60,030 nt of DNA from Escherichia coli (GCF_003334405.1 NZ_QOWM01000020.1); one strand, 5' to 3'; shown: positions 18,671 through 43,025, numbered from the stretch's first letter. Numbers and translations are program-made. The notes: generated by a model not told the origin, from the sequence alone.

Positions 18671-19720
18671 TTATTGCGCAAAGGGATTTTTCGTTTCGTA
18701 TGACGTGTTATAAAGCGCGTCGGAAATTAAATACTGGTAAATATCATCAACAATTTCGATGCCTTCGACGGCGGCTTTGCGTTGTTTAATATCCTGATCC
18801 TGTCCGGGATAATAAACCTGATTAAAACCGGGCGCGGGGGTAATGGCATTTAATTCGCGCATGGTCTGGCTAAGATGTTGACGGAATAATTCGCTGGAGG
18901 AGAAAAAGTTCGGATTAATAACTATATGTAATTGCCCCAAATTACGCCCTGCGTGTAAATCGTCATACATCGAACTAACCTGTCGCCCGAACGGTAAGCC
19001 GAGTAAGACGCCTGAGAGGACGTCAATCATCATCATCAGGCCATACCCTTTTGGCCCGGCGGCGGGGAGCAGAGCATGTACCGCGAACGGATCGGTTGTT
19101 GGTACACCGTTTTTATCGACCGCCCAGGTATCCGGGATAGACATATTACGCGAGCGGGCGTCGAGCACTTTTCCCCATGCCTGTACGGTAGTCGCCATAT
19201 CAAAGGTAAGGATCTCGTCGCCTTCTCCCGGCGCGGCAAAGGCCAGGGGGTTAGTACCGTAGTAAATTTCCGCGCCGCCAAACGGCACCACCATTGGATC
19301 GGACTGGCACATCGAAATGCCAATGAATCCGGCGCGGGCTGCCTGCTGCACAAAATAAGAGATTGCGCCGCTGTGACCCATCCGGCTGATACCGACCACC
19401 GCAACGCCATTTTGCTGGGCGGTTTTGATGGCATGTTCCATACCCATTTTCGCCGCGACCTGTCCGGCGGCATTGTCGGCATGTAAAATTGCCGAGCACG
19501 GCCCGGTTTCCTCAAGACGAAACTCCGGTTCGCGGTTGGTGCCGCCTTTTGAAATGCGTTCCGCGTAGTATTCCACGCGCACCGCGCCATGAGAGTGGAT
19601 CCCTCTGGCATCGGCGTAAACCAATACTTCAGCCACGGTTGCAGCGTGCTCACGTTTTAACCCAGCCTGGCAGAGTTTATTCTCAATTAGCTGGTGGAGT
19701 GTTTCCCGACTGATTTTCAT
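18671..19720 (-). CDS. allD: Ureidoglycolate dehydrogenase
   Basis: 349 aa; synteny. Confidence 0.9.
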   Translation of the reverse strand: MKISRETLHQLIENKLCQAGLKREHAATVAEVLVYADARGIHSHGAVRVEYYAERISKGGTNREPEFRLEETGPCSAILHADNAAGQVAAKMGMEHAIKTAQQNGVAVVGISRMGHSGAISYFVQQAARAGFIGISMCQSDPMVVPFGGAEIYYGTNPLAFAAPGEGDEILTFDMATTVQAWGKVLDARSRNMSIPDTWAVDKNGVPTTDPFAVHALLPAAGPKGYGLMMMIDVLSGVLLGLPFGRQVSSMYDDLHAGRNLGQLHIVINPNFFSSSELFRQHLSQTMRELNAITPAPGFNQVYYPGQDQDIKQRKAAVEGIEIVDDIYQYLISDALYNTSYETKNPFAQ

Positions 19721-20036
19721 CTGTCTTCCTTTTTAACGACGGTGTGAAGCATGACTGCAATTAACATACAGGGAAAATATCTGGATTATGTGATCCAGAC
19801 AGGCAAGAAAATATAGTTAGAATTTATTTGATAATCCGCTCACTTTTAACCTGATTTTTAAAACAACCACGCTTATTAAAAAATAATGAGTAATAGCCTG
19901 GCGGTTATTTGAATTCTTTTGTTAATAATTCCTGTGTGATATTCATCACCTTATTTACTCGTTGTCATCGATACCGTAATCGCCACATTAACACTGCTCG
20001 TGCAATTGCCATGGGTGCAATTTTTAAGGAGTTGTT

Positions 20037-21704
20037 ATGATCCACGCCTTTATTAAAAAAGGGTGTTTTCAGGATTCGGTCAGTTTAATGATTATTTCAC
20101 GAAAACTCAGCGAATCAGAAAATGTTGATGATGTTTCCGTAATGATGGGTACGCCCGCCAATAAAGCGTTATTAGATACCACAGGTTTCTGGCATGACGA
20201 TTTTAATAACGCCACGCCGAACGATATTTGCGTGGCAATTCGTAGCGAAGCGGCGGATGCGGGGATCGCGCAGGCGATTATGCAGCAGCTTGAAGAGGCG
20301 CTAAAACAACTGGCGCAGGGGTCAGGCAGCAGCCAGGCGTTGACGCAGGTGCGTCGCTGGGACAGTGCCTGTCAGAAATTACCCGACGCCAGTCTGGCGC
20401 TGATTTCAGTGGCTGGCGAGTATGCGGCGGAGCTGGCGAACCAGGCGCTGGATCGCAACCTCAACGTGATGATGTTCTCCGATAACGTCACGCTGGAAGA
20501 TGAAATCCAACTTAAAAGCCGCGCGCGGGAAAAAGGCTTGCTGGTGATGGGGCCGGACTGCGGTACGTCGATGATTGCCGGCACGCCGCTGGCTTTTGCT
20601 AACGTGATGCCGGAAGGCAATATTGGCGTCATTGGCGCTTCCGGTACCGGGATTCAGGAACTGTGTTCGCAGATTGCGCTGGCAGGGGAGGGAATTACTC
20701 ACGCGATTGGCCTTGGCGGGCGCGACCTCAGCCGTGAAGTGGGCGGCATCAGTGCGCTGACGGCGCTGGAAATGCTCAGTGCAGACGAGAAAAGCGAAGT
20801 GCTGGCATTTGTTTCAAAACCGCCTGCCGAAGCTGTGCGTCTGAAAATTGTTAATGCCATGAAAGCAACCGGCAAACCGACGGTGGCGCTGTTTTTAGGT
20901 TATACCCCGGCGGTGGCCCGCGACGAGAATGTCTGGTTTGCCTCCTCGCTGGATGAGGCCGCACGCCTGGCTTGCCTGCTTTCACGCGTTACGGCGCGAC
21001 GTAACGCGATAACGCCTGCCAGCAGCGGATTTATTTGCGGTTTGTATACCGGCGGTACCCTGGCTGCCGAAGCGGCGGGATTACTTGCTGGACACCTTGG
21101 CGTGGAAGCCGACGATACCCATCATCACGGCATGATGCTCGACGCCGATGGTCACCAGATTATTGACCTCGGCGATGATTTCTACACCGTCGGGCGTCCC
21201 CATCCGATGATCGACCCAGCCTTACGCAATCAGTTAATTGCCGATCTCGGCGCTAAACCGCAAGTGCGCGTATTGCTGCTTGATGTCGTGATTGGCTTCG
21301 GTGCGACCGCCGATCCTGCCGCCTCGCTGGTAAGCGCCTGGCAAAAAGCCTGTGCTGCGCGTTCAGACAATCAACCACTGTATGCCATTGCCACGGTGAC
21401 AGGCACTGAACGTGACCCGCAATGCCGCTCGCAGCAAATCGCCACGCTGGAAGATGCGGGGATCGCGGTAGTGAGTTCGCTGCCGGAAGCCACCTTGCTG
21501 GCGGCGGCACTGATTCGTCCGCTTTCGCCTGCCACTCAGCAACACACACCGTCATTACTGGAAAACGTCGCCGTGATTAACATCGGATTACGCAGCTTTG
21601 CGCTGGAGCTACAAAGCGCCAGCAAACCGGTTGTGCATTACCAATGGTCGCCAGTCGCCGGCGGCAATAAAAAACTGGCTCGTTTATTAGAACGTTTGCA
21701 ATAA
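20037..21704 (+). CDS. fdrA: FdrA, succinyl-CoA-synthetase-alpha-like/CoA-binding protein; proposed subunit of oxamate carbamoyltransferase
   Basis: 555 aa; synteny with ylbE/ylbF/ybcF. Confidence 0.85.
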   Translation: MIHAFIKKGCFQDSVSLMIISRKLSESENVDDVSVMMGTPANKALLDTTGFWHDDFNNATPNDICVAIRSEAADAGIAQAIMQQLEEALKQLAQGSGSSQALTQVRRWDSACQKLPDASLALISVAGEYAAELANQALDRNLNVMMFSDNVTLEDEIQLKSRAREKGLLVMGPDCGTSMIAGTPLAFANVMPEGNIGVIGASGTGIQELCSQIALAGEGITHAIGLGGRDLSREVGGISALTALEMLSADEKSEVLAFVSKPPAEAVRLKIVNAMKATGKPTVALFLGYTPAVARDENVWFASSLDEAARLACLLSRVTARRNAITPASSGFICGLYTGGTLAAEAAGLLAGHLGVEADDTHHHGMMLDADGHQIIDLGDDFYTVGRPHPMIDPALRNQLIADLGAKPQVRVLLLDVVIGFGATADPAASLVSAWQKACAARSDNQPLYAIATVTGTERDPQCRSQQIATLEDAGIAVVSSLPEATLLAAALIRPLSPATQQHTPSLLENVAVINIGLRSFALELQSASKPVVHYQWSPVAGGNKKLARLLERLQ

Positions 21705-27967: not shown

Positions 27968-29353
27968 ATGCTAAAAATCTTCAATACTCTGACACGCCAA
28001 AAAGAGGAATTTAAGCCTATTCACGCCGGGGAAGTCGGCATGTACGTGTGTGGAATCACCGTTTACGATCTCTGTCATATCGGTCACGGGCGTACCTTTG
28101 TTGCTTTTGACGTGGTTGCGCGCTATCTGCGTTTCCTCGGCTATAAGCTGAAGTATGTGCGCAACATTACCGATATCGACGACAAAATCATCAAACGCGC
28201 CAATGAAAATGGCGAAAGCTTTGTAGCGCTGGTGGATCGCATGATCGCCGAAATGCACAAAGATTTTGATGCGTTGAACATTCTGCGCCCGGATATGGAG
28301 CCGCGCGCGACGCACCATATCGCAGAAATTATTGAACTCACTGAACAACTGATCGCCAAAGGTCACGCTTATGTGGCGGACAACGGCGACGTGATGTTCG
28401 ACGTCCCGACCGATCCGACATATGGCGTGCTGTCGCGTCAGGATCTCGACCAGCTGCAGGCAGGCGCGCGCGTTGACGTGGTCGACGACAAACGCAACCC
28501 GATGGACTTCGTTCTGTGGAAGATGTCGAAAGAGGGCGAACCGAGCTGGCCGTCTCCGTGGGGCGCGGGCCGTCCAGGCTGGCACATTGAATGTTCGGCA
28601 ATGAACTGCAAGCAGCTGGGTAACCACTTTGATATCCACGGCGGCGGTTCAGACCTGATGTTCCCGCACCACGAGAACGAAATCGCGCAGTCCACCTGTG
28701 CCCATGATGGTCAGTATGTTAACTACTGGATGCACTCCGGAATGGTGATGGTTGACCGCGAGAAGATGTCCAAATCGCTGGGTAACTTCTTTACCGTGCG
28801 CGATGTGCTGAAATACTACGATGCTGAAACCGTGCGTTACTTCCTGATGTCGGGCCACTATCGCAGCCAGCTGAACTACAGCGAAGAGAACCTGAAGCAG
28901 GCGCGTGCGGCGCTGGAGCGTCTCTACACTGCGCTGCGCGGCACCGATAAAACCGTTGCGCCTGCCGGTGGCGAAGCGTTTGAAGCGCGCTTTATTGAAG
29001 CGATGGACGACGATTTCAACACCCCGGAAGCCTATTCCGTGCTGTTTGATATGGCGCGTGAAGTGAACCGTCTGAAAGCAGAAGATATGGCAGCGGCGAA
29101 TGCAATGGCATCTCACCTGCGTAAACTTTCCGCTGTATTGGGCCTGCTGGAGCAAGAACCGGAAGCGTTCCTGCAAAGCGGCGCGCAGGCAGACGGCAGC
29201 GAAGTGGCTGAGATTGAAGCGTTAATTCAACAGCGTCTGGATGCCCGTAAAGCGAAAGACTGGGCGGCGGCAGATGCGGCGCGTGACCGTCTTAACGAGA
29301 TGGGGATCGTGCTGGAAGATGGCCCGCAAGGGACCACCTGGCGTCGTAAGTAA
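27968..29353 (+). CDS. cysS: Cysteinyl-tRNA synthetase
   Basis: 461 aa; class I HIGH (HIGH) and KMSKS motifs present. Confidence 0.95.
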
Positions 29354-29360
29354 TTGCGCT

Positions 29361-29389
29361 ATTGCCGGATGCGAGTTTTCGCATCCGGT
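29361..29389. terminator. Hairpin between convergent cysS and ybcI (REP-like palindrome, likely bidirectional terminator)
   Basis: CCGGATGCG-agttttc-CGCATCCGG inverted repeat immediately after the cysS stop. Confidence 0.4.
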
Positions 29390-29910
29390 TATCGTCTGTG
29401 CCACCACAACATTCCCATCAGTAGAATCCCCGGCAACCACACCCACATCAATTCAGAAATAATCACCTGATGCCCGTACGGCGTGGTGTAACGAGACAAT
29501 GCAAACGGCGCGACTTTAATCACCTGCCAGGGAGCGAAAAAGCGTTCATCTGACCACGGCCACAGCCAGCCAACCCCTTTACCGCCAGTGGTTACCGAAT
29601 CCAGCAAGCTGTGCGATAGCAACGAGACGGTTAAAAACAGCCAGCAGCGAATCAGCCCAGCCCTGAACCATCGGCGTCCAATCAGCACACATAACAGCGG
29701 GACAACAAACGCAAACACCAGCGAATGGGTAAACCCGCGATGACCAAAAACATTGCCGTAAGCAATGCCAAATTTAAACGACAATACGTCGGCGTCGGGC
29801 AGCATCGCCAGGATGATTCCGGCAAATAACAGACGCGGAGGGATGACTTTCGAACCCAACCCTAAACCAATGCATAGGGGAACGGCGGCGTGCGTAATAA
29901 CGGTTGGCAT
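29389..29910 (-). CDS. ybcI: Inner-membrane metal-dependent hydrolase-like protein (DUF457)
   Basis: 173 aa membrane protein; synteny. Confidence 0.8.
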   Translation of the reverse strand: MPTVITHAAVPLCIGLGLGSKVIPPRLLFAGIILAMLPDADVLSFKFGIAYGNVFGHRGFTHSLVFAFVVPLLCVLIGRRWFRAGLIRCWLFLTVSLLSHSLLDSVTTGGKGVGWLWPWSDERFFAPWQVIKVAPFALSRYTTPYGHQVIISELMWVWLPGILLMGMLWWHRR

Positions 29911-30017
29911 GATGGTCGCTTCGGCAAAATGTCGATGCTATCAGCATGGATGAACGGGGCGTAGAGGGCAAAAGTCTGAAAAGAGAACCGGCCTGTTGAT
30001 ACAGGCCGGGAAAGGGA

Positions 30018-30230
30018 TCAGGCAACAACCTGTACGCTGTGACCTGCAAAACTCACTGTCTGACCGGCGACGATTTTGCAGCGTTTGCGCGTTTCAACCG
30101 CGCCATCGACTTTCACCTGGCCTTCGGCAATCGCGATTTTCGCCTGCGCGCCGCTTTCGCTCCAGCCTTCCAGTTTCAGCAAGTCGCACAGCTCAACGTG
30201 CGGATGTTTACCTAAAGAAAATGTCGCCAT
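30018..30230 (-). CDS. ybcJ: S4-like RNA-binding protein
   Basis: ~70 aa from MATFSLGKHPHVEL; directly downstream of folD. Confidence 0.75.
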   Translation of the reverse strand: MATFSLGKHPHVELCDLLKLEGWSESGAQAKIAIAEGQVKVDGAVETRKRCKIVAGQTVSFAGHSVQVVA

Positions 30231-30231
30231 G

Positions 30232-31098
30232 TTACTCACCCTGTGGATCATGATATTCAACGCACGCCTGTAGCGTGTTTTCAATCAGCGTGGCAACCGT
30301 CATCGGGCCAACGCCGCCGGGAACAGGCGTAATGTATGAGGCGCGTTTAGCCGCGTCTTCAAACACCACGTCGCCCACAACTTTGCCATTTTCCAGACGG
30401 TTGATGCCGACATCAATCACAATTGCGCCTTCTTTGATCCAGTCACCAGGAATAAAGCCCGGCTTGCCGACGGCAACGATCAACAGATCGGCATTTTCTA
30501 CGTGATGACGCAGATTTTTAGTGAAGCGGTGAGTCACGGTAGTGGTGCAACCTGCTAGCAGCAGTTCCATGCTCATCGGGCGGCCAACGATATTCGATGC
30601 GCCAATCACCACGGCGTTGAGGCCGAAGGTATCAATGTTGTAACGCTCAAGCAGCGTGACGATGCCGCGCGGGGTGCAGGGACGCAGACGCGGCGCGCGC
30701 TGGCACAGGCGACCGACGTTATAAGGATGGAAACCGTCTACGTCTTTGTCCGGGTGAATACGTTCCAGTACTTTGACGTTATCAATACCCGCCGGTAACG
30801 GCAGTTGAACCAGAATGCCATCAATGGTGTTGTCGGCATTCAGCGCATCGATAAGCTCCAGCAGCTCCGCTTCGCTGGTGGTTTCCGGGAGGTCATAAGA
30901 GCGGGAGACGAACCCGACTTCTTCACAAGCCTTGCGTTTGCTTGCGACATAAATTTGCGATGCAGGGTTACTACCCACCAGCACAACGGCCAGTCCTGGT
31001 GCCCGCAGTCCGGCTGCAATACGCGCCTGAACTTTTTGAGCAACTTCAGAGCGCACCTGCTGCGCAATCGTTTTACCGTCAATAATCTTTGCTGCCAT
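30232..31098 (-). CDS. folD: Bifunctional methylenetetrahydrofolate dehydrogenase/cyclohydrolase
   Basis: 288 aa from [13 protein letters not shown]. Confidence 0.9.
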
Positions 31099-31577
31099 CA
31101 GAGAGAGGATTCCATCTGTTACGTAGGTCGAAGGGGATGCGCCTATTTTGTCAGAAGCGGGGCGCGCTGTCAGGTTTCGTTTCAGATTTATCACGTGAAG
31201 CGACCTCTTGCGAAGGTTAGGCGCACCGTCGCTGAGGTCGCTGAGATTGAAAGCTTCATTTTTCGTCCATGATGGCGTTGTAAATCTGGAACTGACTTAT
31301 TTCCTTGTCTAAGGATTAAGATAATTTAAGAAATACCTGACAATATAAAAAGAATTTTCAGCCTGGTAATTTACCGCTTCAGGTCTATATTTGTGTTGAA
31401 TATATTTTGCGCGGAAGTATTCATCTAACGGGGCTCTCTATTTTTTAGAATAGAGTGCATATTTTCAATTAAGACATTCTTAGAGGATAAAAAGGAATTT
31501 ACTACTATCAGTGTCTTAAATAAAGTAATCGGTTATATACGGATGTGGAGTCGATAAATGAGATTGAAGGAATATAT

Positions 31578-32120
31578 ATGAAATTAAGATTTATTTCGTC
31601 TGCGCTGGCTGCCGCACTATTCGCCGCTACGGGTAGTTATGCTGCCGTTGTAGATGGCGGTACAATTCACTTTGAAGGCGAACTGGTGAATGCTGCCTGT
31701 TCAGTGAATACTGACTCGGCAGACCAAGTTGTCACACTCGGTCAATATCGTACCGATATTTTCAATGCTGTTGGTAATACCTCTGCATTAATTCCATTCA
31801 CCATTCAGTTGAACGACTGCGATCCTGTTGTTGCCGCTAATGCTGCCGTTGCATTTTCTGGTCAGGCTGATGCAATCAATGATAATTTATTGGCCATTGC
31901 ATCCAGTACCAATACAACAACAGCAACGGGTGTCGGTATTGAAATACTTGATAATACATCCGCAATTCTCAAACCTGATGGGAATAGCTTCTCAACCAAC
32001 CAGAACTTGATCCCCGGGACCAACGTTCTTCATTTTTCTGCACGTTATAAAGGCACCGGTACAAGTGCATCAGCAGGGCAAGCAAATGCTGACGCGACTT
32101 TTATTATGAGATACGAATAA
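31578..32120 (+). CDS. sfmA: Type 1-like fimbrial major subunit
   Basis: ~180 aa with signal peptide ([22 protein letters not shown]) and fimbrin fold. Confidence 0.85.
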
Positions 32121-32339
32121 TCAAAACCACGTTGTTTTGAATTATATATCACGTCTTATAACAAAGTAATGTACCGGTTGTCTGAAGCGGTATGGTGGCA
32201 ATGTAAATCGAAATCATGTTCACTTTGTATCATGCCGCTTTATTAAATGAAAAGGGAATGATGTGTTGTAAGAAACCAAAGCAATCATTTCTTTATATTT
32301 CTTATTTTTGCCGTCAGGAATACACAAGGCGTATTAACT

Positions 32340-33032
32340 ATGATGACTAAAATAAAGTTATTGATGCTCATTATATTTTATTTAATCATTTCGGCCAGCG
32401 CCCATGCTGCCGGAGGGATCGCATTAGGTGCCACGCGTATTATTTATCCCGCTGATGCTAAACAGACTGCGGTATGGATTAGAAATAGCCATACCAATGA
32501 GCGTTTTCTGGTCAATTCGTGGATTGAAAACAGCAGCGGTGTAAAAGAAAAGTCATTCATCATTACACCGCCACTATTTGTTAGTGAACCCAAAAGCGAA
32601 AATACTTTGCGTATTATTTACACCGGTCCACCGCTGGCGGCAGATCGTGAGTCTCTGTTCTGGATGAATGTTAAGACGATCCCTTCGGTAGATAAAAATG
32701 CATTGAACGGCAGGAATGTTTTGCAACTGGCGATTTTATCGCGCATGAAGTTATTTCTCCGTCCAATTCAATTACAAGAATTACCCGCAGAAGCGCCGGA
32801 CACACTCAAGTTTTCGCGATCCGGTAACTATATCAATGTTCATAATCCATCACCTTTTTATGTCACCCTGGTTAACTTACAAGTGGGCAGCCAAAAGTTG
32901 GGGAATGCTATGGCTGCACCCAGAGTTAATTCACAAATTCCCTTACCCTCAGGAGTGCAGGGAAAGCTGAAATTTCAGACCGTTAATGATTATGGTTCAG
33001 TAACCCCGGTCAGAGAAGTGAACTTAAACTAA
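32340..33032 (+). CDS. sfmC: Fimbrial periplasmic chaperone (PapD-like)
   Basis: 230 aa; signal peptide; chaperone-usher synteny. Confidence 0.9.
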
Positions 33033-33062
33033 CCGAATCATCTGACAATATCAGAGCTAATT

Positions 33063-35672
33063 ATGAAAATACCCACTACTACGGATATTCCGCAGAGGTA
33101 TACCTGGTGTCTGGCCGGAATTTGTTATTCATCTCTTGCCATTTTACCCTCCTTTTTAAGCTATGCGGAAAGTTATTTCAACCCGGCATTTTTATTAGAG
33201 AATGGCACATCCGTTGCTGATTTATCGCGCTTTGAGAGAGGTAATCATCAACCTGCGGGCGTGTATCGGGTGGATCTCTGGCGTAATGATGAGTTCATTG
33301 GTTCACAGGATATCGTATTTGAATCGACAACAGAAAATACAGGTGATAAATCAGGTGGGTTAATGCCCTGTTTTAACCAGGTACTCCTTGAACGAATTGG
33401 CCTTAATAGCAGTGCATTTCCCGAGTTAGCCCAGCAGCAAAATAATAAATGCATCAATTTACTGAAAGCTGTACCTGATGCCACAATTAACTTTGATTTT
33501 GCAGCGATGCGCCTGAACATCACTATTCCTCAGATAGCGTTGTTGAGTAGCGCTCACGGTTACATTCCGCCTGAAGAGTGGGATGAAGGTATTCCTGCTT
33601 TACTCCTGAATTATAATTTCACTGGTAACAGAGGTAATGGTAACGATAGCTATTTTTTTAGTGAGCTCAGCGGGATTAATATTGGCCCGTGGCGTTTACG
33701 CAACAATGGTTCCTGGAACTATTTTCGCGGAAATGGGTATCATTCAGAACAGTGGAATAATATTGGCACCTGGGTACAGCGCGCCATTATTCCGCTGAAA
33801 AGTGAACTGGTAATGGGAGACGGCAATACAGGAAGTGATATTTTCGATGGTGTTGGATTTCGTGGTGTACGGCTTTACTCTTCCGATAATATGTATCCTG
33901 ATAGCCAGCAAGGGTTTGCCCCAACAGTACGTGGGATTGCCCGTACGGCGGCCCAGCTAACGATTCGGCAAAATGGTTTTATTATCTATCAAAGCTATGT
34001 TTCCCCCGGCGCTTTTGAAATTACAGATTTGCACCCGACATCTTCAAATGGCGATCTGGACGTCACCATCGACGAGCGCGATGGCAATCAGCAGAATTAC
34101 ACTATTCCGTATTCAACAGTGCCAATTTTACAACGCGAAGGGCGTTTCAAATTTGACCTGACGGCGGGCGATTTTCGTAGCGGTAATAGTCAGCAATCAT
34201 CGCCTTTCTTTTTTCAGGGCACGGTACTCGGCGGTTTACCACAGGAATTTACTGCCTACGGCGGGACGCAATTATCTGCCAATTACACCGCCTTTTTATT
34301 AGGGCTGGGGCGCAACCTCGGGAACTGGGGCGCAGTGTCGCTGGATGTGACCCATGCGCGCAGTCAGTTAGCCGACGATAGTCGTCATGAGGGGGATTCT
34401 ATTCGCTTCCTCTATGCGAAATCGATGAACACCTTCGGCACCAATTTTCAGTTAATGGGTTACCGCTATTCGACACAAGGTTTTTATACCCTTGATGATG
34501 TTGCGTATCGTCGAATGGAGGGGTACGAATATGATTACGATTACGACGGTGAGCATCGCGATGAACCGATAATCGTGAATTACCACAATTTACGCTTTAG
34601 CCGTAAAGACCGTTTGCAGTTAAATATTTCACAATCACTTAATGACTTTGGCTCGCTTTATATCTCTGGTACCCATCAAAAATACTGGAATACATCGGAT
34701 TCAGATACGTGGTATCAGGTGGGGTATACCAGCAGCTGGGTTGGCATCAGTTATTCGCTCTCATTTTCGTGGAATGAATCTGTAGGGATCCCCGATAACG
34801 AACGTATTGTCGGACTTAATGTTTCAGTGCCTTTCAATGTTCTGACCAAACGTCGCTACACCCGGGAAAATGCGCTCGACCGCGCTTATGCCTCCTTTAA
34901 CGCCAACCGTAACAGCAACGGGCAAAATAGCTGGCTGGCAGGTGTAGGTGGGACCTTACTGGAAGGCCACAACCTGAGTTATCACGTAAGCCAGGGTGAT
35001 ACCTCGAATAATGGGTATACGGGCAGCGCCACGGCAAACTGGCAGGCCGCTTACGGTACGCTGGGGGTCGGGTATAACTACGACCGCGATCAACATGACG
35101 TTAACTGGCAGCTGTCTGGCGGTGTGGTCGGGCATGAAAATGGCATAACGCTGAGCCAGCCTTTAGGGGATACCAATGTTTTGATTAAAGCGCCTGGCGC
35201 AGGCGGTGTACGCATTGAAAATCAAACTGGCATTTTAACCGACTGGCGCGGCTATGCGGTGATGCCGTATGCCACGGTTTATCGGTATAACCGTATCGCG
35301 CTTGATACCAATACGATGGGGAATTCCATCGATGTTGAAAAAAATATTAGCAGCGTTGTGCCGACGCAAGGCGCGTTGGTTCGTGCCAATTTTGATACCC
35401 GCATAGGCGTGCGGGCGCTCATTACCGTTACCCAGGGCGGAAAACCGGTGCCGTTTGGATCACTGGTACGGGAAAACAGTACCGGAATAACCAGTATGGT
35501 GGGTGATGACGGGCAAGTTTATTTAAGTGGTGCGCCATTGTCTGGTGAATTACTGGTTCAGTGGGGAGACGGCGCGAACTCACGCTGCATTGCGCACTAT
35601 GTATTGCCGAAGCAAAGCTTACAGCAAGCCGTCACTGTTATTTCGGCAGTTTGCACACATCCTGGCTCATAA
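33063..35672 (+). CDS. sfmD: Fimbrial outer-membrane usher
   Basis: 869 aa; synteny. Confidence 0.9.
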
Positions 35673-35684
35673 AGGAAATTATCA

Positions 35685-36692
35685 ATGAAGATAATCTGCA
35701 GATTATTATTGGCGATGGCATGTTTGTGTCTGGCAAACATATCCTGGGCTACTGTTTGTGCAAATAGTACTGGCGTAGCAGAAGATGAACACTATGATCT
35801 CTCAAATATCTTTAATAGCACCAATAACCAGCCAGGGCAGATTGTTGTTTTACCGGAAAAATCCGGCTGGGTAGGTGTCTCAGCAATTTGTCCACCCGGC
35901 ACGCTGGTGAATTATACATACCGTAGTTATGTCACCAACTTTATTGTTCAGGAAACTATCGATAATTATAAATATATGCAATTAAATGATTATCTATTAG
36001 GTGCGATGAGTCTGGTTGATAGTGTTATGGATATTCAGTTCCCCCCGCAAAATTATATTCGGATGGGAACAGATCCTAACGTTTCGCAAAACCTTCCATT
36101 CGGGGTGATGGATTCTCGTTTAATATTTCGTTTAAAGGTTATTCGTCCCTTTATTAACATGGTGGAGATCCCCAGACAGGTGATGTTTACCGTGTATGTG
36201 ACATCAACGCCTTACGATCCGTTGGTTACACCTGTTTATACCATTAGTTTTGGTGGCCGGGTTGAAGTACCGCAAAACTGCGAATTAAATGCCGGGCAGA
36301 TTGTTGAATTTGATTTTGGTGATATCGGCGCATCGTTATTTAGTGCGGCAGGGCCGGGTAATCGACCTGCTGGTGTCATGCCGCAAACCAAGAGCATTGC
36401 GGTCAAATGTACGAATGTTGCTGCGCAGGCTTATTTAACAATGCGTCTGGAAGCCAGTGCCGTTTCTGGTCAGGCGATGGTGTCGGACAATCAGGATTTA
36501 GGTTTTATTGTCGCCGATCAGAACGATACGCCGATCACGCCTAACGATCTCAATAGCGTTATTCCTTTCCGTCTGGATGCAGCTGCGGCAGCCAATGTCA
36601 CACTTCGCGCCTGGCCTATCAGTATTACCGGTCAAAAACCGACCGAAGGGCCGTTTAGCGCGCTGGGGTATTTACGCGTCGATTATCAATGA
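35685..36692 (+). CDS. sfmH: Fimbrial adhesin-like subunit
   Basis: 335 aa with signal peptide; FimH-like position in the operon. Confidence 0.8.
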   Translation: MKIICRLLLAMACLCLANISWATVCANSTGVAEDEHYDLSNIFNSTNNQPGQIVVLPEKSGWVGVSAICPPGTLVNYTYRSYVTNFIVQETIDNYKYMQLNDYLLGAMSLVDSVMDIQFPPQNYIRMGTDPNVSQNLPFGVMDSRLIFRLKVIRPFINMVEIPRQVMFTVYVTSTPYDPLVTPVYTISFGGRVEVPQNCELNAGQIVEFDFGDIGASLFSAAGPGNRPAGVMPQTKSIAVKCTNVAAQAYLTMRLEASAVSGQAMVSDNQDLGFIVADQNDTPITPNDLNSVIPFRLDAAAAANVTLRAWPISITGQKPTEGPFSALGYLRVDYQ

Positions 36693-36702
36693 GGTACGGA
36701 GA

Positions 36703-37218
36703 ATGAGAAGAGTACTCTTTAGCTGTTTCTGCGGGCTACTGTGGAGTTCCAGTGGATGGGCAGTTGACCCTTTAGGAACGATTAATATCAATTTGCACGG
36801 TAACGTTGTTGATTTCTCCTGTACCGTAAACACAGCGGATATTGATAAGACGGTAGATTTAGGCAGATGGCCTACGACACAACTACTGAACGCTGGCGAT
36901 ACCACGGCACTCGTCCCTTTTAGCCTGCGGCTGGAGGGATGTCCTCCGGGTTCAGTTGCGATTTTATTTACGGGAACGCCGGCATCCGATACCAACCTGC
37001 TGGCTCTGGATGATCCCGCAATGGCACAAACCGTCGCCATCGAATTACGTAATAGCGATCGCTCCCGGCTCGCACTGGGGGAGGCGAGCCCGACTGAGGA
37101 AGTAGATGCAAATGGCAATGTCACACTAAACTTTTTTGCCAATTATCGAGCGTTAGCCAGCGGTGTTCGGCCAGGTGTGGCGAAAGCGGATGCGATATTT
37201 ATGATCAATTATAATTAA
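36703..37218 (+). CDS. sfmF: Fimbrial minor subunit
   Basis: ~171 aa from MRRVLFSCFCGLLWSSSGWA. Confidence 0.8.
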   Translation: MRRVLFSCFCGLLWSSSGWAVDPLGTININLHGNVVDFSCTVNTADIDKTVDLGRWPTTQLLNAGDTTALVPFSLRLEGCPPGSVAILFTGTPASDTNLLALDDPAMAQTVAIELRNSDRSRLALGEASPTEEVDANGNVTLNFFANYRALASGVRPGVAKADAIFMINYN

Positions 37219-37220
37219 TA

Positions 37221-37853
37221 TTATATTAATTCGTATAATTTGGCGTAGTCGATAAGCTCTACAATTGAATGCAAACCTAGCTTGCCATAAATATTAGATT
37301 TATGCGCACTAACTGTTTTATTGCTAAGTAATAACTTATCGGCAATTTCTTTATTAGATAATCCGCTAACCAGATAACGTAATATGGTCACTTCACGATT
37401 AGATAGCACAGTGACCGTTGAACTATTCGTACTACATTTATTGCTTTTTATATAGTTAAGCGTTTCGCTGGGAAAAAACGTGTATCCGGAGAGGATCATC
37501 TGAACGGCATGAAAAATATCATTCTGATCATTGCATTTACTGACAAAACCGTTAGCACCAGCTTGTATCGCTCTGCCAGCATAAAAGCATTCTGATTTCG
37601 ATGATAAAAATAACACTTTCACTGTGCTCTGGATTTGTTTGATCCTTTTCAGGAAGGTAAAACCGTCTGTTCCGGGCAAGTCTATATCCATAATGATTAA
37701 ATCAACAGGACGGGTTCGGAGATAATCGATGGTTATGCGATAATCATCCGTTTTCAGGACAATCTGCAATTCACTGTTTTTTTGCAACAGAACTTCAATA
37801 GACATTCTGATGATAGGATGAGTATCCATAATGATCACCGACGTTGGTTTCAT
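37221..37853 (-). CDS. fimZ: LuxR/NarL-family response regulator of fimbrial expression
   Basis: ~210 aa from MKPTSVIIMDTHPI; receiver domain plus C-terminal LuxR HTH. Confidence 0.85.
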   Translation of the reverse strand: MKPTSVIIMDTHPIIRMSIEVLLQKNSELQIVLKTDDYRITIDYLRTRPVDLIIMDIDLPGTDGFTFLKRIKQIQSTVKVLFLSSKSECFYAGRAIQAGANGFVSKCNDQNDIFHAVQMILSGYTFFPSETLNYIKSNKCSTNSSTVTVLSNREVTILRYLVSGLSNKEIADKLLLSNKTVSAHKSNIYGKLGLHSIVELIDYAKLYELI

Positions 37854-38036
37854 AGTTACCAGTCTCATAGGAGCGGACAATTTTCCGTTAGGTCGGGAAA
37901 TTGTACTTTGATACATGAAAATACGGGTTTTCTTGATTCAGACGCGCAGCGGTGTGCGTTTGTTTGCCGCTATAGCGAAATAAATCAGAAAATCAGACGC
38001 GGTCGTTCACTTGTTCAGCAACCAGATCAAAAGCCA

Positions 38037-38064
38037 TTGACTCAGCAAGGGTTGACCGTATAAT
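38037..38064 (+). promoter_or_regulatory. Candidate sigma70 promoter for argU
   Basis: TTGACT (38037-42), 16-bp spacer, TATAAT (38059-64), about 30 bp upstream of the tRNA 5' end. Confidence 0.45.
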
Positions 38065-38095
38065 TCACGCGATTACACCGCATTGCGGTATCAAC

Positions 38096-38172
38096 GCGCC
38101 CTTAGCTCAGTTGGATAGAGCAACGACCTTCTAAGTCGTGGGCCGCAGGTTCGAATCCTGCAGGGCGCGCCA
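38096..38172 (+). tRNA. argU: tRNA-Arg (anticodon UCU)
   Basis: 77-nt cloverleaf GCGCCCTTAGCTCAGTTGGATAGAGC...CTTCTAAGTCG...GGTTCGAATCCTGCAGGGCGCGCCA with anticodon loop cuUCUaa and encoded CCA. Confidence 0.9.
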
Positions 38173-38217
38173 TTTCTTCCTCATTTATGCCCGTCTTATC
38201 CGTTTCCGCTTTGCCCT

Positions 38218-38979
38218 TCACCACATCACTTTTTGTCGCTGTTTGGCGAGATAATTCAACGGTGTCAGGCCGTAAAACGCCTTAAAAACAGAGATAAAGT
38301 ACGACGTGCTGCTATAGCCACATAATTGCGCCACCTGAGTGATATTTTTGTTATCCATCAATAACATCTGTACGGCGTAACGCATACGACACTCTGTGAC
38401 AATCTGGCTATAGCTGGTATTTTCGTTTTTTAATTTCTTTTTGAGCAGGCTGGGGCTTAAACATAGCGAACTGGCGACAATTCGCAGATTCCAGTAATGC
38501 TGAATATCGCTTTGAATAATGCGGCAGACGCTGTCGCGGACGCTGCTGCGTAAGATATACATCAGTAGGGCAATAAACCGCGATTGCTCAAGAAAGTTAG
38601 ACAATACGGTAAAAAGCAATGCGCGCGTCAACTCCGCTTCGCAGGGTCTGCTGGGTTGCTGCTTGCTGTGGTTGGCGGCTAGCCGGAACACTTCCGGTGT
38701 ACGGCTATGACAAGCGATAACCGGGGTTGCCAGCCGCGACCAGGGCTTTACACAGGTTAAGTTCTTATTTAAAAACAACAGATAATCGTTGATGATGTTA
38801 CGGTTGATGTGGGTGATTAATACGTGATTTAACGTTGAGAGTTCAATGACGTTATTGTTGCACGCGAAGGCGGCCAGGTAGTTTTTCGGAAGGGTAAACG
38901 TAGCATGGTTATTGACGCTTACCTCTACCTCTTTTTCGGTCAGGATCACCACGCAAGGTTCACTGCTGCTCAATTGCAT
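38218..38979 (-). CDS. envY: AraC-family transcriptional regulator (porin thermoregulation)
   Basis: 253 aa; C-terminal AraC-type HTH. Confidence 0.85.
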   Translation of the reverse strand: MQLSSSEPCVVILTEKEVEVSVNNHATFTLPKNYLAAFACNNNVIELSTLNHVLITHINRNIINDYLLFLNKNLTCVKPWSRLATPVIACHSRTPEVFRLAANHSKQQPSRPCEAELTRALLFTVLSNFLEQSRFIALLMYILRSSVRDSVCRIIQSDIQHYWNLRIVASSLCLSPSLLKKKLKNENTSYSQIVTECRMRYAVQMLLMDNKNITQVAQLCGYSSTSYFISVFKAFYGLTPLNYLAKQRQKVMW

Positions 38980-39161
38980 TTCGCACTCCTCAGATATCAG
39001 AAACTCCGCTCAAAGGATCTATGCTTCCTGCATGAGTGATCGGCCCGTTCGCCGATAACGATCTTCTTTCTTTAGCACGCTTTTTAGCAATTAATCTTGA
39101 TGGAATTCTGATGAGAGCGAAAGAGGTAAGCCAGGTCGTACCCGACTTACCTGGAGGAGAT

Positions 39162-40052
39162 TTAATACTCGAGAATGCCGTGCGCGACGGGCAAATAGCG
39201 CAGAGAGAAATAGAGAGTGTCTTTACCGCAAGAGGAACGTTTCGCTAACAGCGAGGCAATTTCTGCGTCCGGTTTCGGTTTCGCTGTAAAGGTTTTGCCT
39301 TTGCCGGCGACAAAAAGTTCATAAACAACGCCGCTGGCAGGGGCGGGACTTTGGCAATCGGCGCTGGCCTGTAAATAACGTTCACGCTGTTCAGCGGTCA
39401 GTTTATCCACGCCGCTGCCATCCTGTACCCAGACATTAACGCCGGTTGCTTTAACGTGTTCCAGCAGTTGGCGATAGCCATCGGGCGACATGTTTCCGGC
39501 GAAAAAACTACTGATATAAACCGGTTTTGCTGAAACATCGCTAATCAGCCGCTGCGCGTTGTTTAACCATGTTAGCAAAGGCTGACGGGCGGCTTCGCTG
39601 CGCCAGTTCAGGTCGTCAATTTCCGCGCTGATGTACCAGCCATCCGGCGTTATGCCAGGCGCGGCGCTCCATAATCTGGCTTGCTGGAGATCGGCAGCCA
39701 GCAGGCGATTAAGATAGCTTTCCAGCGCTGCGGACGACTGTTTCTGGTGCATAAAAAATTCCGGATCGGCGTTCAGCCCGACAATAAGCTTCAGACCAGC
39801 CTGTTGCGCAGCTGCGGCCCGCTTAAACAATAACGTGCGCTGTTCTGGCTGGGTAAATGCATCGCCGTAACGGGTCCATTGCAAAACAAGGGTATCGAAG
39901 CCTTGCAAACGTAACTGACTCATCAGCCCCTGCCACTGGGTATCGGTAACCTGACTATCTCGGTTTTGTGGTTGCCAGATAATACCTTTCATCGCAAAGG
40001 AAAAAGGGCTGACCAAAAGCAGTGTCAGCAATACGAAAATGAACTTACGCAT
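39162..40052 (-). CDS. ybcH: Periplasmic protein of the nfr locus (YbcH), secreted
   Basis: 296 aa with signal peptide MRKFIFVLLTLLLVSPFSFA; directly downstream of nfrA. Confidence 0.8.
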   Translation of the reverse strand: MRKFIFVLLTLLLVSPFSFAMKGIIWQPQNRDSQVTDTQWQGLMSQLRLQGFDTLVLQWTRYGDAFTQPEQRTLLFKRAAAAQQAGLKLIVGLNADPEFFMHQKQSSAALESYLNRLLAADLQQARLWSAAPGITPDGWYISAEIDDLNWRSEAARQPLLTWLNNAQRLISDVSAKPVYISSFFAGNMSPDGYRQLLEHVKATGVNVWVQDGSGVDKLTAEQRERYLQASADCQSPAPASGVVYELFVAGKGKTFTAKPKPDAEIASLLAKRSSCGKDTLYFSLRYLPVAHGILEY

Positions 40053-43025
40053 TTACCAGTGCACTCCAATGGTGAGAAACGCGTTGTTGCGCTCTCCGTT
40101 ACGTTGATTAATCGCCTTAAAGGTATGTTGATACTCGACGCCGAGACTGACTTTGTGCGGCCAGGCGTCGTAGTGCGTCTCGCCGGTCCAGATATTCCAG
40201 CGGACCCCGACTCCGCCAAGCTGCGCGCCCTGAGTGCCTTTATCACGATAGCCGTTGTCCTGAACGTGAGCGTAAGGCTCAATAGTCTGTCCGTTAGCTA
40301 CCTTCTGATGCCAGCTGACGCGATAATCTGCCGTCCACGCCTGAATATCCTGGCGGATATATTGCGCCGCATCGAGGTACAGGTTTTGGGCAAACCAGCC
40401 TGAACCGTTCGGGTGCCATTCGTCGCTGTATTTGCCGCCATTAAAGAATGAGGCGCTGGCGCGCAGCATGGTATCGGATGCGCCATTTTGGCCGTTCAGC
40501 GGCAACTGCTGTTCGACGGCGATGAAAAAGATCTGATCGCGCAGCGGCTTCCAGCGCAGACCGGTGCCGGACATCGGATTTTTCACCGGCATCATCACCC
40601 CGTTTTCTCCGGTATCGGCAAAGACGCGGCTATAAACTGAGAGCAGGTCGCCTTCCAGCAGCATATTGCGTCCGATGCGGTACTCGGCTTCCAGTTGTCC
40701 GTAGCTACGATAGCTTTTCCCTGGCGCTGCGCCGCCGACATTATTGTTAGCGGTACTCATTGCGCCGGAACGCAAGCCGATGGAAGAATCGAAACTGAAC
40801 GTCCAGCGGCGACCGACCTCCTCATGCAAACGGCGGAAATTGAAGCGTTGTTGATTTTGTTCTGGGGTCAGTGGGGTTATCAGCGCCTGATTATCAATGT
40901 CATCAATCACCAGCCGGGCGTAGTGCTGCGTCGCAGGCATGTCATCCAGACGCTGGTTCACGTAGGCCAGTTGTCGGATCAGTGCCGGATCGTCCGGAAG
41001 CCCTTTATGCGCCGGTTCGAGCATTTCCCGCGACTGTGCGATATCACCGCTATCCCACAAGGCGTAACCAAGCGCTGCCTGGGTGTTGCTATTATTCGGT
41101 TCCAGTTCCAGCGCGGCGCGCAAATCACTCACCGCGGCCGGGACATTATGACGTTGGCGATAAATTGTCGCCCGCGCAACGTAAGCGTTGGCAGAAGGCG
41201 CAATATTGATTGAGCGCGTGAGATCGTTCAGTGCGAGTTCCGGCTGACCAGGAATGTAACGTTGCGCATGCAGCCACCAGTAGAGGGCATTGCTTCCCAG
41301 TCCACGTTTTTCTGCCTGTTGTAGCCAGCGATCGCGAGCCGCACCATTTCCTGCCGCCTGGGCGGTATTGGCAGCAGCAAGCAGATCCTCATTGCTCATG
41401 TCGTGAAGACTGATTTTCTGCCAGGCCGCCAGTGCGGTGGCGTAGTCCTCAACCTGATACGCCTGATAGGCTACCGCACGATGTTGCCAGGCGCTCGGTT
41501 GTCGTTGTTCGGCCTGAAGCCATGCATACAACGCCACACCGGGTAGCGTGTCCCGATAACACTTTGCCAGACGGTTCCAGGCGGCGGCATCGTAGGAAGG
41601 CGACATATCGCCCAGCAAGCGAACTATTGCCGGGCAATTATCTGCAATACCCGGCAACTGACTTTGCCACTGATGTTGCTCCGCCAGCGGTAAGGGTTTC
41701 GATAAAATCGCCACCTTCGCCGGCGTTGCCAGGTAAGGATGACTTTCCAGCAGAGACGCCAGTCGCGCCATTAAAGTCTGGCTGACACGCGCATCGCCCT
41801 GGAAAGGATAGCGTTGCAGCAATAAATCGGCAGCTTCGCGTGACTGCTCGTTCTGCATCAGTTGCCAGGTTAGTTGATCCAGGCGGGTAAGATTTGCCGG
41901 TTCTTGCTGATACAGCAATCGTGCCAGACGCAGAGCTTCAGCCTTGTTACGGGTCGCCACGCTGACAGCATAACGCTCCTCAAGCATTTCATTGGCGGGG
42001 AGGGTGGCGAGCAGTTTTTGCGCTGCGTCGTACTGACCTTCTTTTAACAGCACCGGTAGCGTCGCGCCAACAACATACTGGCGGTTGTCGGCAAACTGTA
42101 CCGTATAATTCGCCAACGCCTGAACGGGGTTAGCGCTGTATTTAGATAACAGATAGAGCCAACTTTTCTCTTGTGCGTCCGTGGTAAATAGTGGCTTATT
42201 TTCAATGAGATAATGCTGGAGGCGTGCTTTTTCGCCACGATAAGCCAGCGCGGTCGCGTAAGTAATATATGACTGAGGATCGGTGAAGATCCCCTGTGAT
42301 TGCAGTGCCAGGATCCGATCGTCCAGCTGCCCGGCAAGAAGCACGTCAAACCACTGACGGCGTTCTGCCGCGCTTAATGTGTTCTGCTGGCGTGCTTCAT
42401 TGTATAGCGTATCTGCCTGGGACCATTGTTTCAGGTAGATTGCCCGTTGCAGCAGATCGGTTCGCAGCGTTTTTCCTTCCGGCGATGCAGCAAACGTCGC
42501 ATCGTTCAGTTGCGCTCTGGCGACAGGTAACTGTGCCAGCCGCAGGGCATTCTGCCCGACTTCACTGCGACAACGCAGGGTCGGCGCAGCATCGCACGCT
42601 TTTTGCTGGGCAAGCAGTTCTTCAACTGTCGTAACGCTTTTCACTTCAACCGGAATAGCCGCCAGACTGCGCTCAAGTCGGGCATCTCCTGGGTGACGTT
42701 TCAGTTGATCCTCAAGCAACAGCCGCGCCCGGTCATCATGACCAAAATGGCGATAGGCTTCCGCAAGGTATAAAGTCAGCGGAATATTATCCGGCACCTG
42801 CTGGTGTATATATTCAAATTCGCGGATGGCGGTTGCTTCGTCGTTATTTTTCTGTGCCTTCAGCGCTTTATCGAGACGGGGATAAATAACAAAATGGCGA
42901 TAATCGCTCAGCCCCAGCTCTTCTGCGCTGGTGCCGATATTGTCTGCGAGTGCGCTGGTACTCAATAAAGACGTCAGCAGTAAACCAGACCATCCGATGA
43001 CGCGATTAAGGTTATTCTCCTTCAT
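40053..43025 (-). CDS. nfrA: Outer-membrane phage N4 adsorption protein A (TPR-rich periplasmic domain plus C-terminal beta-barrel)
   Basis: ~990 aa; signal peptide; ends ...FLTIGVHW (aromatic C-terminus typical of OM barrels). Confidence 0.85.
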   Translation of the reverse strand: MKENNLNRVIGWSGLLLTSLLSTSALADNIGTSAEELGLSDYRHFVIYPRLDKALKAQKNNDEATAIREFEYIHQQVPDNIPLTLYLAEAYRHFGHDDRARLLLEDQLKRHPGDARLERSLAAIPVEVKSVTTVEELLAQQKACDAAPTLRCRSEVGQNALRLAQLPVARAQLNDATFAASPEGKTLRTDLLQRAIYLKQWSQADTLYNEARQQNTLSAAERRQWFDVLLAGQLDDRILALQSQGIFTDPQSYITYATALAYRGEKARLQHYLIENKPLFTTDAQEKSWLYLLSKYSANPVQALANYTVQFADNRQYVVGATLPVLLKEGQYDAAQKLLATLPANEMLEERYAVSVATRNKAEALRLARLLYQQEPANLTRLDQLTWQLMQNEQSREAADLLLQRYPFQGDARVSQTLMARLASLLESHPYLATPAKVAILSKPLPLAEQHQWQSQLPGIADNCPAIVRLLGDMSPSYDAAAWNRLAKCYRDTLPGVALYAWLQAEQRQPSAWQHRAVAYQAYQVEDYATALAAWQKISLHDMSNEDLLAAANTAQAAGNGAARDRWLQQAEKRGLGSNALYWWLHAQRYIPGQPELALNDLTRSINIAPSANAYVARATIYRQRHNVPAAVSDLRAALELEPNNSNTQAALGYALWDSGDIAQSREMLEPAHKGLPDDPALIRQLAYVNQRLDDMPATQHYARLVIDDIDNQALITPLTPEQNQQRFNFRRLHEEVGRRWTFSFDSSIGLRSGAMSTANNNVGGAAPGKSYRSYGQLEAEYRIGRNMLLEGDLLSVYSRVFADTGENGVMMPVKNPMSGTGLRWKPLRDQIFFIAVEQQLPLNGQNGASDTMLRASASFFNGGKYSDEWHPNGSGWFAQNLYLDAAQYIRQDIQAWTADYRVSWHQKVANGQTIEPYAHVQDNGYRDKGTQGAQLGGVGVRWNIWTGETHYDAWPHKVSLGVEYQHTFKAINQRNGERNNAFLTIGVHW

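Follow-up and report, generated by a model that had tools for sequence, protein, structure and literature searches.

The AT-rich tract upstream of the cryptic sfm operon in an Escherichia coli strain, a probable diverged counterpart of the Salmonella fimA promoter region

The spacer between folD (− strand) and sfmA (+ strand) of Escherichia coli K-12 has been described by Panyukov and Ozoline as promoter island 557105_351 and aligned by them with the folD–fimA spacer of Salmonella (PMC3661553). According to a table in that paper, H-NS binds this island in the ChIP sets of Kahramanoglou and Oshima (code 'K'), while the code leaves it unreported by the H-NS ChIP of Grainger. The operon downstream, sfmACDHF, is poorly expressed in the laboratory and repressed by H-NS, as PMC5797941 and PMC3649669 state with reference to Korea 2010, and under a constitutive promoter it mediates adhesion to eukaryotic cells according to the same sources. 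Over-production of SlyA raises sfmHF 2.6-fold in the account given in PMC5797941, and the orphan regulator FimZ, when phosphorylated, induces the sfm pili genes according to Ogawa 2022, cited in PMC12711010 and PMC12471899. The sfmA gene is under purifying selection, with dN of 0.002 and dS of 0.025 (PMC3604780).

By its position, the sfm locus is orthologous to the type 1 fimbrial (fim) cluster of Salmonella, as already stated in PMC3604780 and PMC3559732. The Salmonella enterica promoter region PfimA, which precedes fimAICDHF, resembles the E. coli region in its position between folD and the pilin gene, in a number of conserved blocks, in its AT-richness, and in the linked fimZ and tRNA-Arg genes. 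The two are, however, only ~55–60% identical, with 36.5% GC in Salmonella and 30.6% in E. coli, and the Salmonella FimZ site has its distal half replaced or re-spaced in E. coli. Further differences are that fimI, fimY, and fimW are absent from E. coli, that the region upstream of fimZ is unrelated, and that Salmonella fim is readily expressed in static broth, whereas E. coli sfm is not.

Two other kinds of system bear comparison. The cryptic yad, yeh, elf/ycb, yra, and yfc chaperone-usher operons of K-12 also have AT-rich upstream DNA, and yadN, yehD, and elfA are H-NS-bound promoter islands in the same table. These operons share with sfm a poor laboratory expression, function when forced on, and an increase by SlyA, but sfm differs in that an activator, FimZ, is encoded next to it and that its ortholog in Salmonella is expressed and has been studied well. 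The fimS switch of E. coli is likewise AT-rich, H-NS-bound, and located upstream of a fimA-type pilin gene; at the sfm region, in contrast, flanking recombination repeats and a FimB/FimE-type recombinase are lacking, and ~4,200 genomes show no inverted form.

In the present work, we have analyzed the folD–sfmA region of an E. coli strain within a stretch of 60,030 nucleotides (GCF_003334405.1, NZ_QOWM01000020.1), called the window in the following. The locus and its gene order are the same as in K-12, for which H-NS binding, crypticity, and FimZ induction are described, and the AT-rich core is 99.7% identical. The strain differs from K-12 in a second copy of GTCGCTGAG, a few SNPs, and the lack of the DLP12 prophage next to argU. 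The composition, boundaries, gene integrity, orthology, conserved blocks, gene absences, and distribution reported below have been computed here.

A previous sequence-only reading had placed an AT-rich leader of about 380 bp, with homopolymer runs, at 31195–31577. The end of this interval holds, being the base before the ATG of sfmA (31578), while its start has to be moved, because the longest possible folD ORF, beginning with a GTG at 31194, had been taken. The folD start at 31098 is backed by the RefSeq annotation of near-identical genomes and by the match to the NCBIfam FolD equivalog (541.7 bits, residues 1–284), and it follows that the spacer extends from 31099 to 31577 (Table 1). The AT-richness itself is well founded but confined to the sfmA-proximal 287 bp, the first ~95 bp of the proposed interval having ~50% GC. 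This core has 30.6% GC as compared to 50.6% in the window, which places it in the bottom 0.56% of 287-bp windows, while 31195–31577 as a whole has 35.8% GC, a value at least as low being found for 2.6% of all 383-bp windows. The left part, 31099–31290, has 51% GC. In all genera considered, the 288 bp upstream of the ATG have 31–38% GC, with E. coli the lowest. Equal or stronger AT-richness is also seen elsewhere in the window, at 427–2869 and 19672–20195, the minimum being 29.5% GC near 1867–2249. The homopolymer runs, on the other hand, do not stand out as a feature: the longest is T6, and the four A/T runs of at least 5 are unexceptional against composition-matched shuffles (P=0.09 for their number, P=0.43 for the maximum length). 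Their lengths are constant across five E. coli strains.

Outside the core, the spacer consists of two parts. From 31099 to ~31182, the sequence (~51% GC) is near-invariant in the alignment of E. coli, E. albertii, Salmonella, and Citrobacter, and it is kept up to ~31182 in strains that have no sfm genes. The sigma-70-like block that it contains (31138–31182) is probably the promoter and leader of folD, and would thus lie outside the sfm control region. The adjoining variable spacer harbors, in its GC-normal sequence, a perfect 9-bp tandem duplication of GTCGCTGAG at 31228–31245. The copy number is polymorphic: the window, BEC1, and S40 have the 9-mer twice, K-12 J53 and Ecol_881 once. The duplication extends an inverted repeat pairing with 31199–31207.

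Table 1. Coordinates of the features of the sfm region, counted from the first nucleotide of the window
Feature	Position	Strand	Remarks
folD	30232–31098	−	divergent left neighbour; start codon 31096–31098, not GTG 31194
folD–sfmA spacer	31099–31577		479 bp
folD-proximal block	31138–31182	−	sigma-70-like: −35 CTGACA 31173–31168, TG-extended −10 CAAAAT 31150–31145
Variable spacer, left edge of sfm block	31183–31290	.	~50% GC, not alignable between genera
AT-rich core: probable sfmA promoter, upstream activator region, and 5′ leader	31291–31577	+	30.6% GC; inside the K-12 island
Putative FimZ-region segment	31309–31349	+	aligned to Salmonella FimZ-protected region (−98 to −47)
AAAAAGAATTTTCAGCC	31347–31363	+	best-conserved block in all three genera; ~−51 to −35 of Salmonella PfimA
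−10-like TATATT (31386–31391) and predicted start (31393–31400)	31386–31400	+	aligned to mapped Salmonella fimA start
Predicted ~180-nt AT-rich 5′ untranslated leader of sfmA	31394–31577	+	Salmonella fimA leader is 194 nt
sfmA	31578–32120	+	major pilin, 180 aa; NCBIfam NF011741, 317 bits, 1–180 vs 1–185
sfmC	32340–33032	+	periplasmic chaperone; NF011742, 477.7 bits, full length
sfmD	33063–35672	+	outer-membrane usher; NF011745, 1886.6 bits
sfmH	35685–36692	+	tip adhesin homolog; NF011746, 724.7 bits, full length
sfmF	36703–37218	+	minor/adaptor subunit; NF007402, 334.2 bits, full length
fimZ	37221–37853	−	orphan NarL/FixJ-type response regulator; NF007403, 447 bits; 36.7% GC
argU tRNA-Arg (fimU equivalent)	38096–38169	+	Rfam tRNA 72.1 bits; right end of fim/sfm cluster

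The orthologous loci have been gathered via homologs of SfmA and exact-protein look-ups; a contig search with FimZ gave mostly unspecific regulators of the NarL family, E. albertii being the only locus obtained in this way. The order folD, major pilin, chaperone, usher, adhesin, minor subunit, fimZ (on the opposite strand), and tRNA-Arg is common to Salmonella, Citrobacter, E. albertii, and a divergent Escherichia. In Salmonella and Citrobacter, fimI follows fimA, and fimY and fimW lie beyond fimZ, while these three genes are absent in E. coli and E. albertii.

To transfer the mapped Salmonella elements onto the E. coli sequence, we used the data of PMC3203922, namely the footprinting probe from −334 to +54 with its primers, the FimZ-protected region from −98 to −47, and the positions of the Lrp motifs. 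The Salmonella fimA start has been fixed by the primers in locus L083 and by three GNNNTTTT motifs at the published positions. It is located at nucleotide 8807 of that locus, 194 nt upstream of the ATG, and the −10 element reads TTTAAT. An alignment of eight genomes shows that the E. coli core has blocks in common with Salmonella and Citrobacter, which correspond to −51..−35, the −10 element, a proximal box, a leader block, and the ribosome-binding site. The first of these, best conserved of all, follows the pattern AAAAAG.ATTT.C.G, with AAAAAGAATTTTC at 31347–31359 and invariant alignment columns A109–G122. The leader block reads TCTTAGAGGAT in E. coli vs CTTTACAGGAT, and the ribosome-binding site is AAGGA at 31567–31571. 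The start site, the FimZ box positions, and the role of the loss of fimY and fimW discussed below are inferred.

The proximal box TAAGAAATA is conserved, with TAAGAATTA/G in Salmonella and Citrobacter and TAAGAA(A/T)TA at 31327–31335. Two TTAAGA repeats, 10 bp apart, are found at 31316–31321 and 31326–31331. In E. coli, the FimZ site known from Salmonella has diverged in its distal half, the repeat spacing differs, and the alignment there is ambiguous. The TAAGA motif is present 5 times vs 1.8 expected (P=0.03, uncorrected), a weak excess that would not survive multiple testing. The FimZ boxes assigned to 31309–31349 are accordingly putative, and should be taken as a lead and not a result.

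The transcription start of sfmA, transferred from Salmonella, is predicted near 31393–31400. The −35 element that goes with TATATT is poor (CTGGTA), as expected for an activator-dependent promoter, and a simple consensus scan of the core locates no strong sigma-70 site on the + strand. With the start at this position, the designation of the AT-rich tract as a leader would apply to about two thirds of the core, on its right-hand side. In Salmonella, an ORF of 61–64 aa without a Pfam match has been called over the fimA leader, overlapping the fimA start (8817–9011 in L083, 2826–3011 in L091). This ORF is probably spurious, and it has no counterpart in E. coli.

The structural part of the operon agrees with the expectation of an intact, complete chaperone-usher system. 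The sfmA, sfmC, sfmD, sfmH, sfmF, and fimZ genes match their NCBIfam equivalogs end to end and above the curated cut-off, and the sfm operon and its regulator are therefore intact. The set of pilin, chaperone, usher, adhesin, and adaptor is complete, but the regulatory set of the Salmonella ortholog is not, since fimI, fimY, and fimW are missing. No remnant of fimI is found in the sfmA–sfmC spacer, and tblastn with the Salmonella FimY and FimW proteins gives no match anywhere in the window (E<=1). Between FimZ and its Salmonella counterpart, the identity is 72%; both share the receiver Asp and the HTH, and their recognition helices are nearly identical. The region upstream of fimZ, on the other hand, cannot be aligned with its Salmonella counterpart. 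On that side, fimZ is followed by a spacer of 242 bp and then by argU, with no fimY or fimW beside it.

A few other observations on the cluster can be made here. The sfmA–sfmC spacer (32121–32339, 219 bp) is also AT-rich, with 33.8% GC, and sits where Salmonella and Citrobacter have fimI. For K-12, a genomic SELEX study lists a peak of the RpoH holoenzyme in the sfmA–sfmC interval and, at sfmF/fimZ, a strong one of RpoS (PMC5493296). The sfm structural genes have 45.9% GC and fimZ has 36.7%, the respective values in Salmonella being 54.0% and 40.9% and that of the cysS–folD flank 54.5%, so that the AT shift in E. coli spans the whole cluster (31578–37853) and not the promoter alone. Relative to Salmonella FimA, SfmA is without five residues right after the predicted signal-peptide cleavage site (31644–31658 in the window, residues 23–27). 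At the same site, five residues are missing in E. albertii, four in another Escherichia, and two in one Citrobacter. A shorter donor strand has been suggested as the result (PMC3604780). Directly beyond argU, envY (38218–38979, −) and ybcH (39162–40052, −) follow, and the argU attachment site has no DLP12-type prophage, intD, or ompT, unlike K-12. The contiguous argU–envY–ybcH arrangement is found with at least 80% query coverage in 2,415 of the 5,426 complete genomes.

Taken with the K-12 literature, the comparison makes it very probable that the tract is the cis-regulatory region of sfmACDHF and that, although diverged, it is orthologous to the promoter region of Salmonella fimA. H-NS occupancy, H-NS repression, and FimZ induction are here transferred to the strain from K-12, where the island maps, after conversion of the coordinates, to ~31248–31598 of the window. 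The suggestion that a silenced, nucleoid-protein-bound region precedes an intact cryptic operon is thus upheld by the K-12 publications by way of the 99.7%-identical core. The core contains a single near-consensus match to the H-NS motif, TCGATAAATG at 31551–31560 (TCGATAAATT-like, 9/10); such near-matches occur 5 times in the window vs 4.9 expected, i.e. at chance level.

In the mechanism that we propose, the segment at ~31309–31363 would act as the upstream activator region to which the response regulator FimZ binds. It would be followed by a weak activator-dependent sigma-70 promoter, with TATATT as the −10 element and a start at the position predicted above, and by an unstructured AT-rich leader of ~180 nt reaching the sfmA ribosome-binding site. 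In ordinary growth, H-NS would coat the promoter and the leader, because these are ~70% A+T, and the operon would be off. Spreading of H-NS would probably take place from the promoter and leader and from the AT-rich fimZ end. Expression would then require phosphorylated FimZ and/or an antagonist of H-NS, such as SlyA. The self-amplifying FimY/FimZ loop, which is the on-switch of the Salmonella type 1 fimbriae, would be missing in E. coli, owing to the loss of fimY and fimW and to the different region upstream of fimZ, and its absence may help to explain the crypticity of sfm.

We have also considered an alternative in which the region is a promoter island in the sense of a trap for RNA polymerase. 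Overlapping promoter-like sites would here bind RNA polymerase and H-NS and give rise only to abortive RNAs of 9–14 nt, a behavior that we consider possible but doubtful for this locus. We are similarly hesitant about the associated proposal of Panyukov and Ozoline that the AT-enrichment evolved to hold an acquired operon in a heterochromatin-like state. The K-12 data provide the main argument for this alternative: the island is listed with six short RNAs, and the promoter-dense profile is present in every E. coli tested and not in Salmonella, with a net AT-enrichment relative to the latter (PMC3661553). The direction of the enrichment agrees with our own values, 30.6% GC in E. coli as compared to 32–37% in Salmonella and Citrobacter. 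However, the region 30900–32500 contains 4 sigma-70 sites vs 4.2 +/- 2.1 in dinucleotide-preserving shuffles, as counted with a scanner simpler than PlatProm, and the promoter 'density' is therefore an effect of composition alone. The idea of an acquired operon is at odds with the vertical inheritance of the locus, which occupies the same site in four genera and is ancestral according to PMC3559732. Moreover, since phosphorylated FimZ induces the operon, as the accounts in PMC12711010 and PMC12471899 have it, a productive promoter exists. The promoter-island alternative is in any case largely compatible with the cis-regulatory mechanism proposed above, the difference being that the functional unit would consist of many sites and not of one FimZ-dependent promoter.

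The distribution of the locus bears on a second alternative, in which the spacer belongs to a dying operon and its AT-richness is mutational drift in a dead promoter that has no selected function. A 701-bp query over the region finds a match in 5,425 of the 5,426 complete genomes of E. coli. Its identity with AH21 is 100% if the IS1 of that strain is disregarded, and with J53, which derives from K-12, it is 98%. Of the complete genomes, 4,252 (~78%) contain the core, with an identity of at least 99% in 3,121 and of 95–99% in 1,130, such that 4,251 of the 4,252 matches reach at least 95%. The remaining 1,174 genomes (~22%) have no match to the core. In the genomes that do not have sfm, the folD promoter block is joined at ~31183 to ~37910, just upstream of the fimZ start, and argU follows. 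This is a clean absence of ~6.7 kb comprising the sfm promoter, sfmACDHF, and fimZ, after which folD lies ~270 bp from argU (locus L087). It is consistent with the published absence of sfm from phylogroup B2, sfm being missing from E. fergusonii as well (PMC3604780, PMC3559732). In at least two strains, IS1 has entered the region. In AH21, it interrupts the core promoter predicted above, the 9 bp at 31366–31374 being duplicated at the target, and in JX21CE35 an IS1 at ~31289 is accompanied by the loss of sfmA and sfmC together with the 5′ portion of sfmD (loci L093 and L088, respectively).

Both the absence of the block from ~22% of the complete genomes, from phylogroup B2, and from E. fergusonii and the IS1 insertions and deletions would fit such a decay, as would the loss of fimI, fimY, and fimW and the fact that natural expression of Sfm fimbriae has not been reported (PMC3604780). 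We nevertheless regard decay as improbable. All six genes are intact in the window, the dN/dS of sfmA is ~0.08 (PMC3604780), and blocks are still held in common with Salmonella and Citrobacter after ~100 My. In addition, according to the published accounts, the operon once switched on confers adhesion, and it reacts to FimZ, to SlyA, and to stress.

The ~180-nt 5′ UTR of sfmA, a length assigned by homology, could in principle also be a structured RNA leader, that is, a riboswitch, a thermosensor, or a leader-peptide attenuator, and an ORF has been called over the Salmonella leader. We consider this very unlikely. The minimum free energy fold of the single sequence has a z-score of −1.23, and no conserved structure emerges for the leader from six orthologs, the consensus amounting to −3.5 kcal/mol with almost no covariation. 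A search of 28000–41000 against Rfam at permissive thresholds (E<=1) returns argU only, and there is no ORF of at least 20 aa on either strand within 31313–31544. A structured leader is thus unsupported by fold, covariation, Rfam, or ORF evidence.

Finally, phase variation, by an invertible fimS-like switch or by slipped-strand changes at homopolymer runs, is frequent among fimbrial operons; homopolymer runs were mentioned in the sequence-only reading, and short inverted repeats occur in the spacer. Phase variation is nevertheless disfavoured and very unlikely here: the runs do not exceed T6, are at chance level, and are invariant in five strains, the sole 1-bp indel being T3/T4 at 31496–31499; folD–spacer–sfmA and core-only queries cover at least 80% in 4,192 and 4,194 genomes, always co-linear, and these near-equal counts mean that no inverted form is seen; the annotation of the cluster contains no recombinase gene; and the Salmonella ortholog is known as non-inverting (PMC3203922).

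In K-12, the feature is already known in all essentials, the spacer, the H-NS binding, and the activator having been published, and the locus, which carries little weight beyond bookkeeping, is a textbook-type case of an AT-rich fimbrial promoter silenced by H-NS. What the present analysis adds are the corrected boundaries, which separate the folD promoter block, the variable spacer, and the AT-rich core; the transfer of the mapped PfimA elements of Salmonella onto the E. coli sequence at the level of single bases; and the absence of fimI, fimY, and fimW without remnants, together with the population figures (~78% of 5,426 genomes, with the ~6.7-kb absence otherwise).

More tentatively, the crypticity of sfm might represent an evolved re-wiring and not simple silencing. 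Once separated from Salmonella, Escherichia would have lost fimI, fimY, and fimW, replaced the region upstream of fimZ, re-spaced the FimZ boxes, and gained A+T in the promoter and leader, and a self-amplifying switch would in this way have been converted into an H-NS-locked promoter. The re-spaced FimZ boxes would be the TTAAGA pair, separated by one helical turn, and the promoter would open only when FimZ is phosphorylated by some donor. If such a re-wiring has indeed taken place, the region would be a tractable model of a regulatory circuit decaying into conditional silence.
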